Part shown: positions 5,589-29,511 of the stretch, in pieces
Layout of the letters: each line of letters begins with the position of its first letter
How positions within the stretch are numbered: the first letter of the stretch is position 1
Notes under the pieces: model-generated
Told to the model about the DNA's origin: nothing
What the model saw: the letters and a program-made list of their open reading frames with translations, nothing else
Database searches by the model: none
NCBI GenBank assembly: GCA_046732395.1
Contig: JBKPNB010000156.1
Span: forward strand, 1 to 29,511
DNA: 29,511 nt
Direction: 5' to 3'
Source of the DNA: Actinomycetota bacterium
GTDB taxonomy: Bacteria > Actinomycetota > Thermoleophilia > Solirubrobacterales > 70-9
Position numbers and translations under genes: made by a program

Positions 5589-6485
5589 TTGTGTAGATGG
5601 CGGTTGATCTCGTGCCTCGTCGCGGCCGCGACCATCGCCGTCGGCGCGGTCACCCCCGTCGCGGGCGCCCGGCATCCGGCGCCCCCGAATGGGCGGATCG
5701 CGTTCTCCAGCGACCGCGACGGCGACAACGAGATCTACTCGATGTGGCCGAACGGGACCCACGTTCGCAAGCTCACCAATAACCACCACGATGACTACGC
5801 GCCCGCCTTCTCTCCTAACGGGCGCTCGATCGCGTTTGTCTCGGACCGCGCCGGCAACTTCGAGATCTATTCGATGCGCGCGAACGGCACCGGCGTTCGC
5901 CGCCTCACCCATGATCCGGCCTACGACGACGACCCGACCTACTCCCCCCGCGGGACCCGGATCGCCTTCGAACGCGGCGACGAGCCGTCCCGTGACATCT
6001 ACACGATGAGCTCCAGCGGCGGCGACGAGCGCAACCTCACGGCAAGCTCGTGGGCGGACGACTGGGGCCCGGCCTACGCTCCCAGTGGGCAGCGCATCGC
6101 GTTCGTCTCCGTCACCGGCGGGGCGACGTTCGTCTTTGACATCCGCCCGGACGGGACCGACATGCGCGAGCTCTTGGAACGGGCTCGCTACTTCGCGCCG
6201 GCTTACTCGCCGAACGGGCGCTGGCTCGCCGTGGCGGAGGCGGGCGGTGTCGGAAAGACCGAGATCTTCCGATATCGGCTGACGGATGGCTACATGCAGC
6301 GGCTCACTCACGACAACGTCGGCGACTTCGGCCCCGCCTACTCGCCGAACGGGCGCTCCATCGCCTTCGAGGCCTCGCACGCAGGCGGCCTCGACATCTA
6401 CCGGATGCGGGCCAACGGAACCCATGTCCAGCGGCTCACGCAAGCCCGCGCCGACGATGCCTACCCGACCTGGGCAGTGCGTTAG
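5589..6485 (+). CDS. Secreted TolB-like / PD40-repeat beta-propeller protein
   Basis: Six repeats of the pattern P.[FY]SP.G..IAF......IY.M...G....RLT. Hydrophobic signal-like N-terminus. Start codon uncertain; TTG at 5589 chosen. Confidence 0.85.
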   Translation: MCRWRLISCLVAAATIAVGAVTPVAGARHPAPPNGRIAFSSDRDGDNEIYSMWPNGTHVRKLTNNHHDDYAPAFSPNGRSIAFVSDRAGNFEIYSMRANGTGVRRLTHDPAYDDDPTYSPRGTRIAFERGDEPSRDIYTMSSSGGDERNLTASSWADDWGPAYAPSGQRIAFVSVTGGATFVFDIRPDGTDMRELLERARYFAPAYSPNGRWLAVAEAGGVGKTEIFRYRLTDGYMQRLTHDNVGDFGPAYSPNGRSIAFEASHAGGLDIYRMRANGTHVQRLTQARADDAYPTWAVR

Positions 6486-6666
6486 ATGCAGGCAAGCGCG
6501 CAGCTCGAGCACCCCTTGTCGATCGGCTCGAGTAGCGCGCTGAGGCCAGGCGAGCAGTAGCCGGGCGCCCATGGGCGCCCTTTCCGTTTGCCTCGAAGGG
6601 GGTGGCCGATGGCGCTTTGGCGCCGGCCGGCGCGCGGCCCTGCTGCGCGCGCCTGGGTTACCCCGG

Positions 6667-7401
6667 TTACCTTCGGAGGCGGATCGCGTTCAGATCCTGT
6701 TCCCGCACCTCAGCGATGCGGGCGAGCAGGTCGTCTACGTCGTCGTGCTCGGCGTGGAGGTAGCGGCCGGCGAGCGCGTCGTAATGGCCCGTCGCCAGCT
6801 TGCGAACGAGCTCCGGCGCCAGCTCCGGCGGCGTCCAGGGCGCGTCGTCTGGGAGCGTCCCCGCCGTCATCTCGGTGCGCACGAGCCCGGGGCCGAAGAA
6901 GAAGACGGGGATCCGGCCTTCGAGCTCTGCGGCGAGGGTCTCGCCGTAGCGGCAGACCGCCGCCTTACTCGCCGGATACGCCGTCTTCCCCGAGCCGCTT
7001 GGAAGGTAGGCCGCACCGCTCCCGGTGATCACGATCCGGCCGCCGCCGCGGTCGAGCATTCCGGCGATCACTGCGCTGCAGCAGAGATGCACGCCGAGGA
7101 CGTTCACCTCGAAGACGTGCCACCAGTAGGCGGGATCGACCTTCCAGGTGGCGCCGTCCGGGTTACCGACGCCGGCGTTCGCGACCAGCAGGTCCACCGG
7201 GTCGGCTCCGGCGACCGCGCGCTCGACCGATCGGCGGTTCGCCACATCGACCTGCACCCACTCCCCGCCGATCTCGTCCGCGACCGCCTCTACCTGCGCT
7301 CGGCTGCGGGCGCCGACGACGACCTCCCAGCCGTCGCCCGCGAGCGAGCGCGCGATCCCCGCGCCGATCCCGCGGCCACCGCCGGTGACGAGCGCCTTCA
7401 T
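6667..7401 (-). CDS. Classical short-chain dehydrogenase/reductase (SDR)
   Basis: ALVTGGGRGIG, LVANAG, VFEVNVLG, catalytic YPASK (YxxxK). Confidence 0.92.
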   Translation of the reverse strand: MKALVTGGGRGIGAGIARSLAGDGWEVVVGARSRAQVEAVADEIGGEWVQVDVANRRSVERAVAGADPVDLLVANAGVGNPDGATWKVDPAYWWHVFEVNVLGVHLCCSAVIAGMLDRGGGRIVITGSGAAYLPSGSGKTAYPASKAAVCRYGETLAAELEGRIPVFFFGPGLVRTEMTAGTLPDDAPWTPPELAPELVRKLATGHYDALAGRYLHAEHDDVDDLLARIAEVREQDLNAIRLRR

Positions 7402-7534
7402 GCGCGGAATCGTATTGACGACCCGACATCCCGCGGGGTCTATCGGCGAATTTCGACGGCGACGACCAGCAGGTGAGGACCGCCGAACTGTTCCGTTTCC
7501 TCGTCTGCCTCGAGTTCCGGTGCAACGGCGGTTG

Positions 7535-8236
7535 TCATGGCGTTTGGTCTCCGTGTGGTGGTTGGGGTCGTTCGACGCTTTGGTCTCCGGGCCGGCCGGC
7601 GGAGAGGATCGTCTCCACGAGCCCGGTGACGACGTCGTAGACGTGTCCCGAGACGGTGATGCGCGGGGAGATGGCGGGCGCGGAGCGGAGACGCTCGACG
7701 TCGCTCGTGACCGTCGCCGCGGGTTCGAGGATTGCGTGCTCGCGCAGGGTCGACTCCTCGGCGCCGATCCGCTCGGCGTAGCGGCGGCGGAAGGTGTCGT
7801 CGGCCAGCGCGGCGGTTCCGCATTGGGTGTGGTGGATCACGGCGACCTCGAACAGGGGGCCGTCCGGTAGGACGGTCTCGGCGATCTGGCCGAGGAAGGC
7901 GACGTCGTTGATCACCTCGGGGGTGACCCGCCCGCCGACGTTGCGCACGACGATGGCGTCGCTGAGTTCGAGGCCCAGGAAGTGGGCGGGGTCGACGCGC
8001 GGGTCGAGGCACGTGATGACGAACAGGCGTAGGTTGGGAAAGACGACGGCGTCCTTGTGGCCGCCGGCGGCGGCGAAGGCGCGGTTGCGCGCGAGCGCTG
8101 GCTCGATGCTGGCCGCTCCGGTCTCGCTGGGGCTGGCCAGCTCGAATCCGGTCGCCTGACCGATGACGGGGCCGGCGGGTGGTGTGGCTTGTTGGTTGCT
8201 CACGGGTTTCTCCTTGTTCGGTTCCCCGTAGCTCAT
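7535..8236 (-). CDS. Beta-class carbonic anhydrase (clade D / Rv1284-like)
   Basis: Zn-ligand motifs CLDPR (CxDxR) and HHTQCG (HxxC), plus VRNVGGRV and GHVYDVVTG. Start is either ATG 8236 (ATGA overlap with the upstream stop) or GTG 8203 (own AAGGAG RBS). Confidence 0.9.
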   Translation of the reverse strand: MSYGEPNKEKPVSNQQATPPAGPVIGQATGFELASPSETGAASIEPALARNRAFAAAGGHKDAVVFPNLRLFVITCLDPRVDPAHFLGLELSDAIVVRNVGGRVTPEVINDVAFLGQIAETVLPDGPLFEVAVIHHTQCGTAALADDTFRRRYAERIGAEESTLREHAILEPAATVTSDVERLRSAPAISPRITVSGHVYDVVTGLVETILSAGRPGDQSVERPQPPHGDQTP

Positions 8237-24294: not shown

Positions 24295-25188
24295 ATGGCC
24301 ATGACGACGATGCACATGCTTGAAGCCGCCGAGGCGGACATCGCCTACGACGTCGACGGCCCGCTGCCGACCGCCGACGGACGCCCGCCGCTGTTCATGA
24401 TCGGTCAGCCCATGGACGCCAGCGGATTCCGTACGTTGGCGTCGCACTTCCCGGACCGCACCGTGATCACATATGACCCGCGCGGCCTCGGCCGCAGCAC
24501 CCGCAAGGACAGCCGTGTCGATAATTCGCCCACGGTCCAGGCGGAAGATGTGCATGCGGTAATCGAGGCGCTCGGCGCTGGCCCGGTCGAGATGTTCGCG
24601 AGCAGCGGGGGGGCGGTCACCGCGCTCGCGCTGGTGGCGGCCCATCCCGACGATGTGACCGCCCTGGTGGCGCACGAGCCGCCGCTCATCCCGGTGCTGC
24701 CCGACGCCGCTGCGGCCGAGCGCGCCCGCGCGGGCTTTCGCGACGCCTACGAGGCGAAGGGCTGGGGTGCCGGCATGGCGGCCTTCATCGCGATGACGTC
24801 GTGGCGAGGCGAGTTCACCGACGACTACTTCGCGCAGCCCCCGGCCGATCCCGCCCAGTTCGGGATGCCGACCGACGACGACGGCTCCCGCGAGGACCCG
24901 CTCCTGTCCGACCGGTCCTGGGCCGTCAGCGGCTATCGCCCCGATGCCGAAGCCCTGGCCGCGGCGCCGACGCGCATCGTGATCGCTGTGGGCGAGGAGT
25001 CCCTGGGCACCTTCACCGGACGCACGGCGGTGGCCACCGCGGAGCTACTCGGTCAGCAGGCGACCGTGTTCCCGAGCCACCACGGCGGCTTCCTCGGCGG
25101 CGAGTCCGGGTACGCCGGCCAACCCGAAGCGTTCGCGCGCAAGTTGCGCGAGGTCCTCGACGACGACAGCCAGAAGCCGGCTCGGTAA
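24295..25188 (+). CDS. Alpha/beta hydrolase
   Basis: TYDPRGLGRS, FASSGGA nucleophile elbow, AHEPP, PSHHGGF. GGAGGGG RBS. Confidence 0.9.
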   Translation: MAMTTMHMLEAAEADIAYDVDGPLPTADGRPPLFMIGQPMDASGFRTLASHFPDRTVITYDPRGLGRSTRKDSRVDNSPTVQAEDVHAVIEALGAGPVEMFASSGGAVTALALVAAHPDDVTALVAHEPPLIPVLPDAAAAERARAGFRDAYEAKGWGAGMAAFIAMTSWRGEFTDDYFAQPPADPAQFGMPTDDDGSREDPLLSDRSWAVSGYRPDAEALAAAPTRIVIAVGEESLGTFTGRTAVATAELLGQQATVFPSHHGGFLGGESGYAGQPEAFARKLREVLDDDSQKPAR

Positions 25189-26483: not shown

Positions 26484-26960
26484 CTAGGTCAACTTGACGA
26501 GCGCGGCAAGGAAGAGCGCGAAGGCGACCCAGGTGGCGGCGGCGCGGATCCAGTTGAGTGCGAAGTAGCGCCGCCGCGCGGCCTCCCATCCGCGGGGAAC
26601 GGCATCGGGGTTCCAGGCGAGCATGACGTCGTAGTTCGGCTCGGCGAGTCGGTTGGAGACAAGCAGGGGGCCCGCGATCGTGAGCGCGAGCCCGATCGCG
26701 GTGAGGACGAACGGCGCCTCGCCGATCTCGTCCAGGGCCACGAGCGCGGCTGCCGGCGCGACCACCATTCCGATGACGGCCACGTAGTTGATGGGCGCCT
26801 TGCGAGCGATCGGCAGGAAGGCGCGCAGGAAGCGCGCGAAATCGGGTCCGTCCATGCTCGCCAGCATCGGCTGGAGGACCAGCGTCAGCATCGCCAGCAG
26901 CCCCGACCACAGCCCCGAGAAGACGACGCTCGCGACGAGCGCCCACTCCTCCGCGGTCAC
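26484..26960 (-). CDS. DUF1772 / anthrone oxygenase-like membrane protein
   Basis: Four hydrophobic helices, C-terminal PNY....W...VP..WE..R.RY..LNWIRA pattern. Confidence 0.8.
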   Translation of the reverse strand: MTAEEWALVASVVFSGLWSGLLAMLTLVLQPMLASMDGPDFARFLRAFLPIARKAPINYVAVIGMVVAPAAALVALDEIGEAPFVLTAIGLALTIAGPLLVSNRLAEPNYDVMLAWNPDAVPRGWEAARRRYFALNWIRAAATWVAFALFLAALVKLT

Positions 26961-26970
26961 CTATCGGCGC

Positions 26971-27300
26971 TCAGGCCGCGACCGCGACGAACTCGGGGCT
27001 GTCGCTCGGCGGCAGCGGCTGAGGGTTCAGCCCGACGAAGTTGACCGTCGAGTTCGGCGGCAGCGGCTGGGGGTTCAGGGCCACCAGCTTGATCCGCGAG
27101 CCCGGCGGCAGCGGCTGCGGGTTGAGCGCGACGAGATTGATCGTCGCGTCCGGCGGCAGTGGCTGCGGGTTCAGCGCCACGAGCTCGATCGTCGCGTCGG
27201 GCGGCAGGGGCTGCGGGTTGAGCGCGACCAGGTTGATCGTCGCGCTGGGCGGCAGCGGCTGCGGGTTCAGCGCCACGAGGTGGACGCTCGGCTGGTCCAT
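26971..27300 (-). CDS. 109-aa tandem-repeat protein with six V[AG]LNPQPLPP units
   Basis: GGGAG RBS. The decapeptide is conserved while codons vary synonymously between copies, which indicates selection on the protein. Confidence 0.85.
   Translation of the reverse strand: MDQPSVHLVALNPQPLPPSATINLVALNPQPLPPDATIELVALNPQPLPPDATINLVALNPQPLPPGSRIKLVALNPQPLPPNSTVNFVGLNPQPLPPSDSPEFVAVAA
27007..27276 (-). repeat. Six-copy tandem repeat with a 48-bp period
   Basis: The 30-bp core starts at 27007, 27055, 27103, 27151, 27199 and 27247, separated by 18-bp variable spacers. Confidence 0.95.
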
Positions 27301-27334
27301 GTTCTCTCCCTTCCTGAGGTGGACCTGCGCGAGC

Positions 27335-27811
27335 CTATCCGTCCCCGGTCGAGGCGGAGGGCGTCGCGGCCTCGCCGGCAGCGCGCAGCTCCTCGGTCAA
27401 CTCCTCGGCCGCGTCCGGGCGCCCGTCGAGCCGCGCCGGAGTGTTCTGGAGGGCGAGGGCGCGCCACCCCTCGTCGGAGCGGACGGCGAGCATCAGCTGC
27501 ACCGCGTTCCGATCCGGCATCACATCCTCCCCGCCGGGGGGCACCATCCCCGCCACCGCGTGCAGCAGCGCCACCCCCTCGCTCACCGCGCGCACGCTTC
27601 TAACGATGCGTACATACGTGGCGACCTCGTGGTCGGCAAAGATCATCCCGAGCTGGCGGGCGATCTCATCGCGGCCATGCATCTCGCTGCCGTCGAAGCC
27701 GATCACCAGCGCGGCTTCGGTGAATTGCTCCGCATAAGCCCTCGCGTCCTGGCGGTTCCAGGCAGCGAGGATGTCGGCATGGAGCCGGCTAACGGCGTCG
27801 GTCTCGGCCAT
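27335..27811 (-). CDS. SgcJ/EcaC family NTF2-fold protein
   Basis: ILAAWNRQDARAYAEQF....VIGFDGS.MHGRDEI...IFADH...AVAGMVPPG...NAVQ...W....QNTPAR. Confidence 0.88.
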   Translation of the reverse strand: MAETDAVSRLHADILAAWNRQDARAYAEQFTEAALVIGFDGSEMHGRDEIARQLGMIFADHEVATYVRIVRSVRAVSEGVALLHAVAGMVPPGGEDVMPDRNAVQLMLAVRSDEGWRALALQNTPARLDGRPDAAEELTEELRAAGEAATPSASTGDG

Positions 27812-27846: not shown

Positions 27847-29511
27847 TCAGAACGGGCTCAACTGCCAGGAGCCCTTCTCCGCCTGGGTGAGGCTGAAGTC
27901 GGAGTCGGCGTCGCCGGCCTGTTTGAAGGTCGAGCCCTGGAGTAGCTCCCAGTGGCCCTCGACCGAGCCCTTCGTGCCGCGAAGCTTGACGAAGCCCAGC
28001 TCCGGCGCCCGCCCGCCGACGTCGATGAGCTGCCAGACGCCGTTGCGCCCGGCCCGGGTCCCGAACTCGGTGCGGAAGTCTCCGGCCCGGCGATAGGAGC
28101 CCCGGCGGAGGGCGTCCCAGTGGACCGTGACGCGCCGTCGCGCGTGGCGGAGCTTGATGAAGCCGAGCTTCGGGGCCCCGTGCGCCCCCCCGAAGAGCTG
28201 CCAGCGGCCGTTCTTGCGCTCGGTCGTCCGGAAGTCGGAGCTGAAGATGCCGGTGCGGTGGTAGGACCCGCCTCGCAGCACGTCCCACCGCACTCCGACG
28301 CGCTTCCCTGGGGAGTGGCGGAGCTTGATGAAACCGAGCTTCGGGACGCCGTGGGAGCCGCCGAAGAGCTGCCAGTGGCCGTTCTTCCCGTCCGCCGGCC
28401 GGAAGTCGGAGGTGGCGGATCCCGCACGGTGATAAGAGCCGGCCTGGAGCGTGTCCCACTGGACCTCGACCGTGCCGTGGGCGTGGCGCTCCTTGATGAA
28501 GCCGAGCTCGGGGGCCCCGTTCGCCCGCCCGAACAGCTGCCAGTGACCATACCGGCCGGCGGCGGTTGAGAAATCGGAGGTCGCGTCGAGGCTCCGCTTG
28601 AAGGTGGCGCCGTCGAGGGAGTCGAGGTGGACCTCGACCGCCCCGCCCGTGTGCCGGGTCTTGATGAAGCTCAACTGGTTGGCGAAGGTGGGCCTGCCGC
28701 CCGCCCCGCCGTCCCCGCCGACGACGTCGCCGCTGCCCACGCCGACGGTGTCGGCGTCGAGCGCGTCGTTGTCGATCGAGATCGAGACCCCGCCGTACCT
28801 CTCGACGTGCCCGCCGCGGTACTGGTGGACGCGCTGGTGCCTGGCCCAGAGGCGGGCCGGCAGGTAGGGGTCGGCCGTCGTCGCCTTGCCGTTCCAGTTT
28901 GCGACCCAGATGTCATCGGGCTCTTTGTAGGTGGAGTCCGCCGCCCGGACGAGGTCGACGATTCCGGAGGCGCCGCTGCTGTAGACGCCCGACCGGTATC
29001 CGCTCGTGTGCAGTGCGTTCGTCCAGCCGGCGAGGAAGGCGAGGACCACCGAGCTGCTCGAGCCGCGCGCGTAGCCCTCCATGTCGAAGTAGATCGGGCT
29101 TCCGGGGCCGATCCCGAGGGCCTCGGCGCGCGCGACCGCGTCGGCGGCCGCCGACGCACCCTGCGCGGAGGCCCTCTTGGAGGCGATGGTGGCGCATCGG
29201 CACGACACCGACGGCGCCTGGAGCCCGACGTAGATCGGGATCAGATGCCAGCCGGCGGCGGTCTCGGCGGCGACCCAGGGCGCGGCCAGATTCGGCTGCA
29301 CGCAGGCGCTGTTGATCCCCCCGAGGTAGATCCCGACCGCGCGGTAGGGGGAGGCCTTCCAGGCCTTCATCGCACCGAACGACGGTGCCGAGCAGGTATC
29401 GAAGCCGAGCCCCTTGAAGGTCGATCCGCCCGTCGCGGCGACGGGGGCGAGGCTTCGCGCATGCGCGGCCGGGCCGAGCGTACGGTTCGTGCCGGCCCCC
29501 AGGCGCGGGGC
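27847..29511 (-). CDS. DUF1906 glycoside-hydrolase-like (putative peptidoglycan hydrolase) with C-terminal repeats; 5'-partial
   Basis: GLGFDTCSAP, YRAVGIYLGG, LIPIYVG, IYFDME, GVYSS, W.ANWN, HQYRGG. The frame stays open from the window end (555 codons), so the true start lies beyond 29511. Confidence 0.9.
   Translation of the reverse strand, partial: APRLGAGTNRTLGPAAHARSLAPVAATGGSTFKGLGFDTCSAPSFGAMKAWKASPYRAVGIYLGGINSACVQPNLAAPWVAAETAAGWHLIPIYVGLQAPSVSCRCATIASKRASAQGASAAADAVARAEALGIGPGSPIYFDMEGYARGSSSSVVLAFLAGWTNALHTSGYRSGVYSSGASGIVDLVRAADSTYKEPDDIWVANWNGKATTADPYLPARLWARHQRVHQYRGGHVERYGGVSISIDNDALDADTVGVGSGDVVGGDGGAGGRPTFANQLSFIKTRHTGGAVEVHLDSLDGATFKRSLDATSDFSTAAGRYGHWQLFGRANGAPELGFIKERHAHGTVEVQWDTLQAGSYHRAGSATSDFRPADGKNGHWQLFGGSHGVPKLGFIKLRHSPGKRVGVRWDVLRGGSYHRTGIFSSDFRTTERKNGRWQLFGGAHGAPKLGFIKLRHARRRVTVHWDALRRGSYRRAGDFRTEFGTRAGRNGVWQLIDVGGRAPELGFVKLRGTKGSVEGHWELLQGSTFKQAGDADSDFSLTQAEKGSWQLSPF
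27850..28680 (-). repeat. Five 56-57-aa protein repeats
   Basis: F[IV]K anchors at residues 235, 291, 347, 404 and 460 of the 507-aa ORF. Consensus P[EK]LGFIKxRH..G.V.V.W..L..GSY.RAG...SDF.....NG.WQLFG. Confidence 0.85.

Follow-up and report, generated by a model that had tools for sequence, protein, structure and literature searches.

A leaderless six-unit VALNPQPLPP repeat protein of Actinomycetota and the wider motif class to which it belongs

What kind of protein is built from six copies of one proline-rich decapeptide and little else? This question is raised by a small gene on the reverse strand of the window, i.e. the whole stretch of 29,511 nucleotides of actinomycetotal DNA analysed here. 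An earlier note, made from the sequence alone, had singled out the gene as a candidate undescribed system and offered three explanations for its product: a multi-core RiPP precursor, a beta-strand/polyproline-II structural repeat and a multivalent docking scaffold.

The gene, its repeats and its upstream region

The features of the locus are the following.

26971..27300, reverse strand: coding sequence of the 109-residue repeat protein, stop codon included (open reading frame translation, GC3 of 0.96, orthologs)
26989..27276, reverse strand: six tandem units of 48 nt (16 residues) covering residues 9-104, each V-[AG]-L-N-P-Q-P-L-P-P followed by x-x-x-[IVP]-x-[LF] (Tandem Repeats Finder, codon comparison)
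26974..26988, reverse strand: C-terminal FVAVAA piece (last residue of unit six plus VAVAA), degenerate start of a seventh unit and seventh predicted strand (ortholog alignment, model)
27306..27314, reverse strand: Shine-Dalgarno sequence GGAAGGGAG, 5 nt before the ATG (sequence reading)
27332..27337, reverse strand: -10-like box TAGGCT, which fits TANNNT, about 31 nt before the ATG (kept across orthologous loci)
26484..26960, reverse strand: 158-residue hydrophobic membrane protein, starting 10 nt after the repeat gene (open reading frame)

Translation of the open reading frame at 26971-27300 gives MDQPSVHL, six units of 16 residues and VAVAA. This layout, first read off in the earlier note, is matched by Tandem Repeats Finder, which reports a period of 48 nt with 5.8 copies and a score of 332. 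The GC content of the three codon positions (0.74/0.45/0.96, in a window with 69% GC) marks this frame as the coding frame. Positions 1-10 of the unit are the same in all six copies save for one change from A to G. Among the pairwise codon differences between the six units, 47 are synonymous and 5 non-synonymous in the ten-residue block; the hexapeptide block (positions 11-16) has 6 synonymous and 61 non-synonymous differences. As there is no in-frame ATG, GTG or TTG upstream of the start, the N-terminus of eight residues without a signal peptide is firm. The absence of any other domain is likewise upheld, since Pfam and NCBIfam searches at E<=0.01 returned no match except a sub-threshold one to CbiZ. 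The protein is thus leaderless and mildly acidic, and the whole of it is one repeat array of six full units and a seventh half unit. Where this copy has its TGA stop codon (26971-26973), most orthologs have a W or R codon in the alignment and run on with PAD or similar residues, so that the window copy is 4-5 residues shorter than the norm; a profile match to the protein reads through one TGA. We conclude that the gene is genuine, conserved and stand-alone and encodes a small protein of soil actinobacteria, and its repeat pattern cannot be due to chance.

The gene carries its own upstream signals. A Shine-Dalgarno sequence resembling GGAAGGAG precedes nearly all orthologous loci, and the TAGGCT box stands at the same distance in most of them despite differing upstream genes. 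In the window locus, the TAG of this box is at the same time the stop codon of the upstream SgcJ/EcaC gene. Across loci, the element conserved together with the gene amounts to about 45 nt and consists of a GG[AG]TAGGCT box, a short leader and the Shine-Dalgarno site. The box may therefore act as a promoter element, although a scan for the sigma-70 consensus and for terminators around the gene gave no match. Judged from these sequence signals, translation is probably strong. In a soil RNA library, one contig of 154 nt covers 27033-27177 with 4 differences, a weak hint of expression; carry-over of DNA is possible. A rhizosphere RNA library contained only motif-sized matches of 26-34 nt, which derive from other genes, and one contig of 188 nt with 13 differences over the neighbouring SgcJ/EcaC gene. 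A third data set yielded no contig that could be placed here.

Orthologs in Actinomycetota and the wider motif class

A scan with one genome per species found 24 orthologs, all in Actinomycetota and 54-86% identical. They belong to metagenome-assembled genomes (MAGs) of Thermoleophilaceae, Solirubrobacterales, 'Actinomycetes', Jiangellaceae and Acidimicrobiales, and to two cultured organisms, Phytohabitans sp. LJ34 and Fodinibacter luteus JCM 17809. Distribution of the gene is rare and patchy. At the order level, 3 of 200 other genomes had a clear ortholog, all from one Thermoleophilaceae genus, and 2 more matched weakly. Not one of 55 sampled genomes of the window's own family gave a match, and in a phylum-level sample it was 1 in 400 other genomes. 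Many database versions of the protein have spurious long N-terminal extensions from upstream GTG or TTG starts, and several metagenome copies are frameshifted within the array, probably because the 48-nt repeats were misassembled; comparisons by length are therefore unreliable for this family.

The orthologs share the start, the absence of a signal peptide, six units at strict 16-residue spacing and the seventh strand. Where the start was correctly placed, none of the Actinomycetota orthologs with the 16-residue period had an export signal. Copy number is six plus one in all intact orthologs. The ends vary: one clade terminates in FVAVAA[WR]PAD, and the clade from Acidimicrobiales and Fodinibacter has a longer N-terminus and a full seventh FVALNPQPLPP unit with the end NPQPLPPEPP. 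The 16-residue register persists even where the motif decays, for instance as ...LLAPGPQALAPDTTINL... in Fodinibacter and Acidimicrobiales MAGs, indicating that the register counts for more than single motif copies.

Selection acts differently on the two blocks of the unit. Over 17 orthologs, pN/pS is 0.08 for the motif block and 0.58 for the hexapeptide block. Together with the almost exclusively synonymous differences between the six units, the former value bears out the earlier proposal that the peptide itself is under selection. The pS of the conserved blocks is 0.45, which argues against a homogenisation of cassettes at the nucleotide level. When 25 orthologs with six repeats each are pooled, the entropy at positions 1-10 is 0.17-0.83 bits. 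Conservation extends to the hydrophobic positions 14 (I/L/V) and 16 (L/F), whose orthologous-column entropies are 0.57 and 0.34 bits. Positions 11-13 and 15 are polar and variable, 13 being mostly T and 15 mostly N, D or E. Hydrophobic residues at 14 and 16 next to polar ones at 11-13 and 15 give the in/out pattern of a strand. The hexapeptides, described as variable in the earlier note, do vary between the repeats of one protein, but they do not vary freely, because each repeat retains its own hexapeptide across the 25 orthologs. For example, repeat 2 is DATIEL with 72-100% agreement per position, the hexapeptide of repeat 4 has G in first place, and those of repeats 5 and 6 close with F. A repeat number and repeat identity that stay constant over three classes of Actinomycetota are what would be expected of a single folded unit in which inner and end coils are not alike. 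Such a pattern agrees with a single folded array of distinct coils and not with interchangeable cassettes.

The decapeptide is not restricted to these orthologs. A word-indexed protein search returned 314 proteins at E<=0.01, and an exhaustive profile search over 1.84 billion representatives (50% identity clusters) only 311 at E<=0.001, of which seven reached E<=1e-30. Among the retrieved proteins, 197 contain the [V][AS]LNPQPLPP unit at least twice. Members of the wider class stem from Acidobacteriota-type MAGs, Mycolicibacterium agri, Sphingomonas, Devosia, Bryobacteraceae and cyanobacteria, and their typical unit is [V][AS]LNPQPLPP[GKR] followed by an often low-complexity spacer of 13-27 residues. 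The variable motif position is L in 694 of 795 copies. By a crude test, about half of the retrieved members of this wider class start with a signal-peptide-like N-terminus, and some of the exported proteins are fused to Ig-like He_PIG or RTX modules. In the literature searched, no relevant paper on the motif or its variants was found. In the absence of a Pfam or NCBIfam match and of a paper, the designation as undescribed holds.

No partner gene was common to the seven wider-class loci compared, which include three syntenic mycobacterial copies. Directly upstream of a YCII gene, M. agri and related MAGs encode a protein that has a signal peptide and 3-4 NPQPLPPGPD units; at the M. agri locus, stop and start overlap. 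Next to the YCII gene lies an ECF-type sigma factor with DUF6596, and the loci are flanked by lspA-rluD-EamA and dnaE1 (one such stretch is L038 5001-7050). A Devosia member of the class also lies beside sigma-70 and rluD. The proximity of the Mycolicibacterium and Devosia members to sigma factors may be coincidental.

Genomic neighbourhood, predicted structure and competing readings

In the window, an SgcJ/EcaC NTF2-like gene lies 34 nt upstream of the repeat gene, which is followed by the membrane protein, EthD and SDR genes. This arrangement invites the idea of a natural-product operon, which was rejected because the context with SgcJ, EthD and SDR occurs in the window locus alone of 25 loci. 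The membrane protein had no Pfam match even at E<=1 and none in NCBIfam; a DUF1772 identity considered for it was thus dropped, and the gene is absent beside the repeat gene in all other loci compared. In an all-against-all comparison of the genes within 6 kb at 25 loci, no neighbour family was common to more than three loci. A Pfam scan of the 49 immediately flanking genes yielded at most three matches per family (Glyoxalase_6, SnoaL-like, methyltransferase). Co-occurring proteases or maturases, which the earlier note had in mind, did not turn up: none of these 49 genes encodes a protease, maturase, YcaO, radical SAM, ATP-grasp, lanthipeptide synthetase or peptidase-type exporter. Having conserved upstream elements of its own and no shared neighbour family, the gene needs no dedicated partner beside it.

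Three further observations concern the surroundings. In one Thermoleophilaceae MAG (6001-7632 of its locus) efp-nusB follows the repeat gene at a distance of 723 bp; linkage to efp was rejected as a general feature, since it was seen at 1 of 25 loci. In the window, the open reading frame at 27847-29511 (reverse strand), which runs off the window, encodes a glycoside-hydrolase-like domain of the Rv2525c kind (E 2e-49); after a linker rich in Gly come some five basic repeats, each of roughly 50-56 residues with the pattern LGFIK...WD.L...SDF...G.WQLF, that no Pfam model matched. An alpha/beta hydrolase at 24295-25188 (forward strand), 1.8 kb away, has a borderline match to the S33 'serine aminopeptidase' model and is not conserved near the repeat gene in other loci.

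The structure of the repeat protein was predicted twice with AlphaFold2.

Run 1, 8 sequences: pLDDT 77.5 (five models 48-78), pTM 0.66, seven strands of 5-7 residues, one per unit
Run 2, 25 sequences: pLDDT 64.9 (five models 60-65), pTM 0.53, six strands of 6-7 residues, one per unit

In both runs the strands fall on x-I-x-L-V-A-L, and NPQPLPPxx has no regular structure; a strand modelled at residues 103-107 corresponds to the C-terminal piece of the seventh unit. Foldseek against the PDB found nothing at E<=0.001 (best value 0.22), and the AFDB clusters retrieved were unnamed proteins only, with a best TM of 0.69. Weak structural matches in the Atlas were to hexapeptide and bactofilin-type clusters, and the Protein Atlas look-alike search had no usable match. 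In an exhaustive VIA-align comparison, model 1 ranked the CsgA curli fibril 8enq_A first (Z 6.6, rmsd 2.6 A over 80 residues), with left-handed beta-helices following at a Z lower by about two; a Z below 8 can mean a shared arrangement only. For model 2, the best Z was 2.6, to beta-helices, and the likeness to CsgA was not reproduced. Left-handed beta-helices scored Z 2.0-4.7 over both models. The nearest solved folds to the predicted models are thus all beta-solenoids. AlphaFold over-predicts solenoids for perfect repeats, and the models deserve moderate confidence: the solenoid class is reproducible between them, the geometry and the curli likeness are not.

From these data we infer, with a probability of roughly 0.4, that the protein is a self-contained stacked beta-strand/polyproline structural repeat that serves as a rigid or self-associating module. 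In each unit, the residues x-I-x-[L/F]-V-A-L would form a short, hydrophobic beta-strand with the invariant Asn as its cap, and a Pro-rich P-Q-P-L-P-P segment and a polar turn of 2-3 residues would follow. The units would stack in a solenoid-like manner, with the strands forming one parallel sheet and the proline segments returning as extended connectors of the polyproline-II type. In such a stack the invariant N and Q could form ladders and the I/L/V/A/L8 side chains the core. The role would be that of a rigid structural or self-associating module and not that of an enzyme, a regulator of known fold or a peptide precursor. A structural repeat of this type had been listed by the earlier note as an alternative to the RiPP idea. 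It has become the favoured reading, as both models have one strand per unit, with the reservation that confidence in them is moderate and their geometry is not reproducible. For self-association, prediction of a homodimer from two copies with a second predictor (score 0.00, chain pLDDT about 49) gave no evidence either way. Against a stacked fold stand the low chain pLDDT from this second predictor and the wider class, in which the motif occurs in exported proteins with irregular, often low-complexity spacers of 13-27 residues; such spacers would suit a linear motif acting on its own more than a fixed fold.

The main rival, possible if doubtful, treats the protein as a multivalent proline-rich ligand array. 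The chain would be largely disordered or polyproline-II, VALNPQPLPP would be a linear motif for a proline-recognising partner, either a protein or an envelope component, and having six of them would bring avidity or clustering. Across phyla, from Acidobacteriota-type bacteria to Mycolicibacterium, Sphingomonas, Devosia and cyanobacteria, it is indeed the ten-residue motif that is conserved and not the spacer. The range of motif spacings, the predominance of L at the variable position, the fusions to He_PIG and RTX modules in exported proteins and the unfolded chain returned by the second predictor point in the same direction. Nevertheless, neither the 25 loci of the subfamily nor the seven of the wider class have a recurrent candidate partner beside the gene. 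In addition, a 16-residue register and hydrophobic positions 14 and 16 that are kept where motifs decay are not needed for a ligand of the beads-on-a-string kind, and a leaderless protein among often exported carriers would require the shared partner on both sides of the membrane. The docking scaffold suggested by the earlier note therefore keeps its place owing to the conservation of the motif across phyla and is weakened by the lack of a recurrent partner.

A bolder form of the structural reading takes VALNPQPLPP for an unrecognised self-associating beta-strand/polyproline-II module that occurs across phyla. In the Actinomycetota protein, six copies at minimal spacing would build one beta-sheet backed by a stacked polyproline layer, with Asn/Gln ladders, and the product would be a polymerising or surface-coating, leaderless solenoid resembling functional amyloids and without a relative among solved structures. 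We consider this unlikely.

Still less probable is the multi-core RiPP precursor, in which VALNPQPLPP is the recognition sequence and the hexapeptides are cores that an enzyme encoded elsewhere releases or cyclises. The alternation of invariant and variable blocks and the position of the window gene among SgcJ/EcaC, EthD and SDR genes are in line with this idea, and some RiPP precursors, e.g. the prochlorosins, are encoded apart from their enzymes. However, eight N-terminal residues provide no leader, and the orthologs share this start position, preceded by a conserved Shine-Dalgarno sequence. No class of maturation enzyme is found in the genes flanking the 25 loci, and the SgcJ/EthD context is peculiar to the window. 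Copy number is constant, each repeat keeps its own supposed core, in which the hydrophobic positions 14 and 16 are fixed, and the pN/pS of the hexapeptides is not above 1. Furthermore, the flanks diverge synonymously instead of being homogenised, and the motif is found behind Sec signal peptides in the wider class. Without a leader, a maturase or shared neighbours, and with cores conserved per repeat, the RiPP proposal is not supported, and we regard it as very improbable.

Two minor readings are, even taken together, just as improbable. The six L-P-P-[DGNS] sites could make synthesis dependent on EF-P, as a sensor or reporter, in keeping with the six or seven PP-X sites within 109 residues and the one Thermoleophilaceae genome with the gene near efp-nusB, but diproline motifs are common in high-GC Actinomycetota and the other 24 loci lack this neighbourhood; the Thr/Asn rows at positions 13 and 15 could form an ice- or mineral-binding face, as a match to the Rhagium antifreeze protein (Z 3.2) might suggest, but this match is at noise level and, unlike in regular ice-binding arrays, the rows are interrupted in repeat 4 (R-I-K) and contain acidic residues. 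The probability that is left falls to something else.

Significance and comparison with known systems

A ten-residue motif that is nearly invariant across phyla and lies outside Pfam and NCBIfam models as well as the searched literature marks out a block of protein 'dark matter', for which the Actinomycetota branch offers the cleanest entry point: it is small, of fixed architecture and free of other domains. Tests of structure, localisation and knock-outs are feasible owing to the presence of the gene in Phytohabitans sp. LJ34 and Fodinibacter luteus JCM 17809. A stacked beta/polyproline fold, if true, would add a new repeat architecture; if the motif is a ligand, it would point to a widespread unrecognised recognition system. 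The tempting natural-product reading of the locus has been removed as unsupported.

Among known systems, precursors of the cyanobactin type (PatE-like) resemble the repeat protein in their small size and in the alternation of invariant flanks with short, more variable segments. They differ from it in that the repeat protein lacks a leader and, at the 25 loci, a PatA/PatG-type protease or maturase nearby; its cores are conserved by position and its flanks are free at synonymous sites. Cytoplasmic solenoids, namely left-handed beta-helices (hexapeptide) and bactofilins, resemble the repeat protein in so far as it is leaderless and predicted to stack one short strand per coil, and folds of this kind fill the weak structural match lists of both models. 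In contrast to them, the repeat protein has no Hexapep or Bactofilin Pfam match, and Z reaches only 2-4.7. Coils of 16 residues with seven Pro/Asn/Gln positions leave room for at most one sheet, unlike the left-handed beta-helix or bactofilin.

The amyloid beta-solenoids CsgA and FapC share with the repeat protein the small size, the limitation to 5-7 short imperfect repeats and an invariant Asn and Gln in each. For the two-layer beta-solenoid fold of CsgA the two models disagree: model 1 superposes on 8enq_A, and model 2 reaches its best Z with other solenoids. Unlike CsgA, the repeat protein is devoid of a Sec signal, of csgB/E/F/G-like neighbours and of a Curlin-repeat Pfam match, and its unit is one strand plus a proline-rich connector, whereas that of CsgA is strand-loop-strand.

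The closest relative is the wider ALNPQPLPP class, with several near-invariant [V][AS]LNPQPLPP units in stand-alone genes that mostly encode no other domain. Its members often have a signal peptide, spacers of 13-27 residues and G, K or R after the motif. The protein described here is a compact, leaderless Actinomycetota branch of this unannotated class, distinguished by its strict 16-residue period, six-plus-one copies, an I-x-L strand in each spacer and a FVAVAAWPAD-type end.
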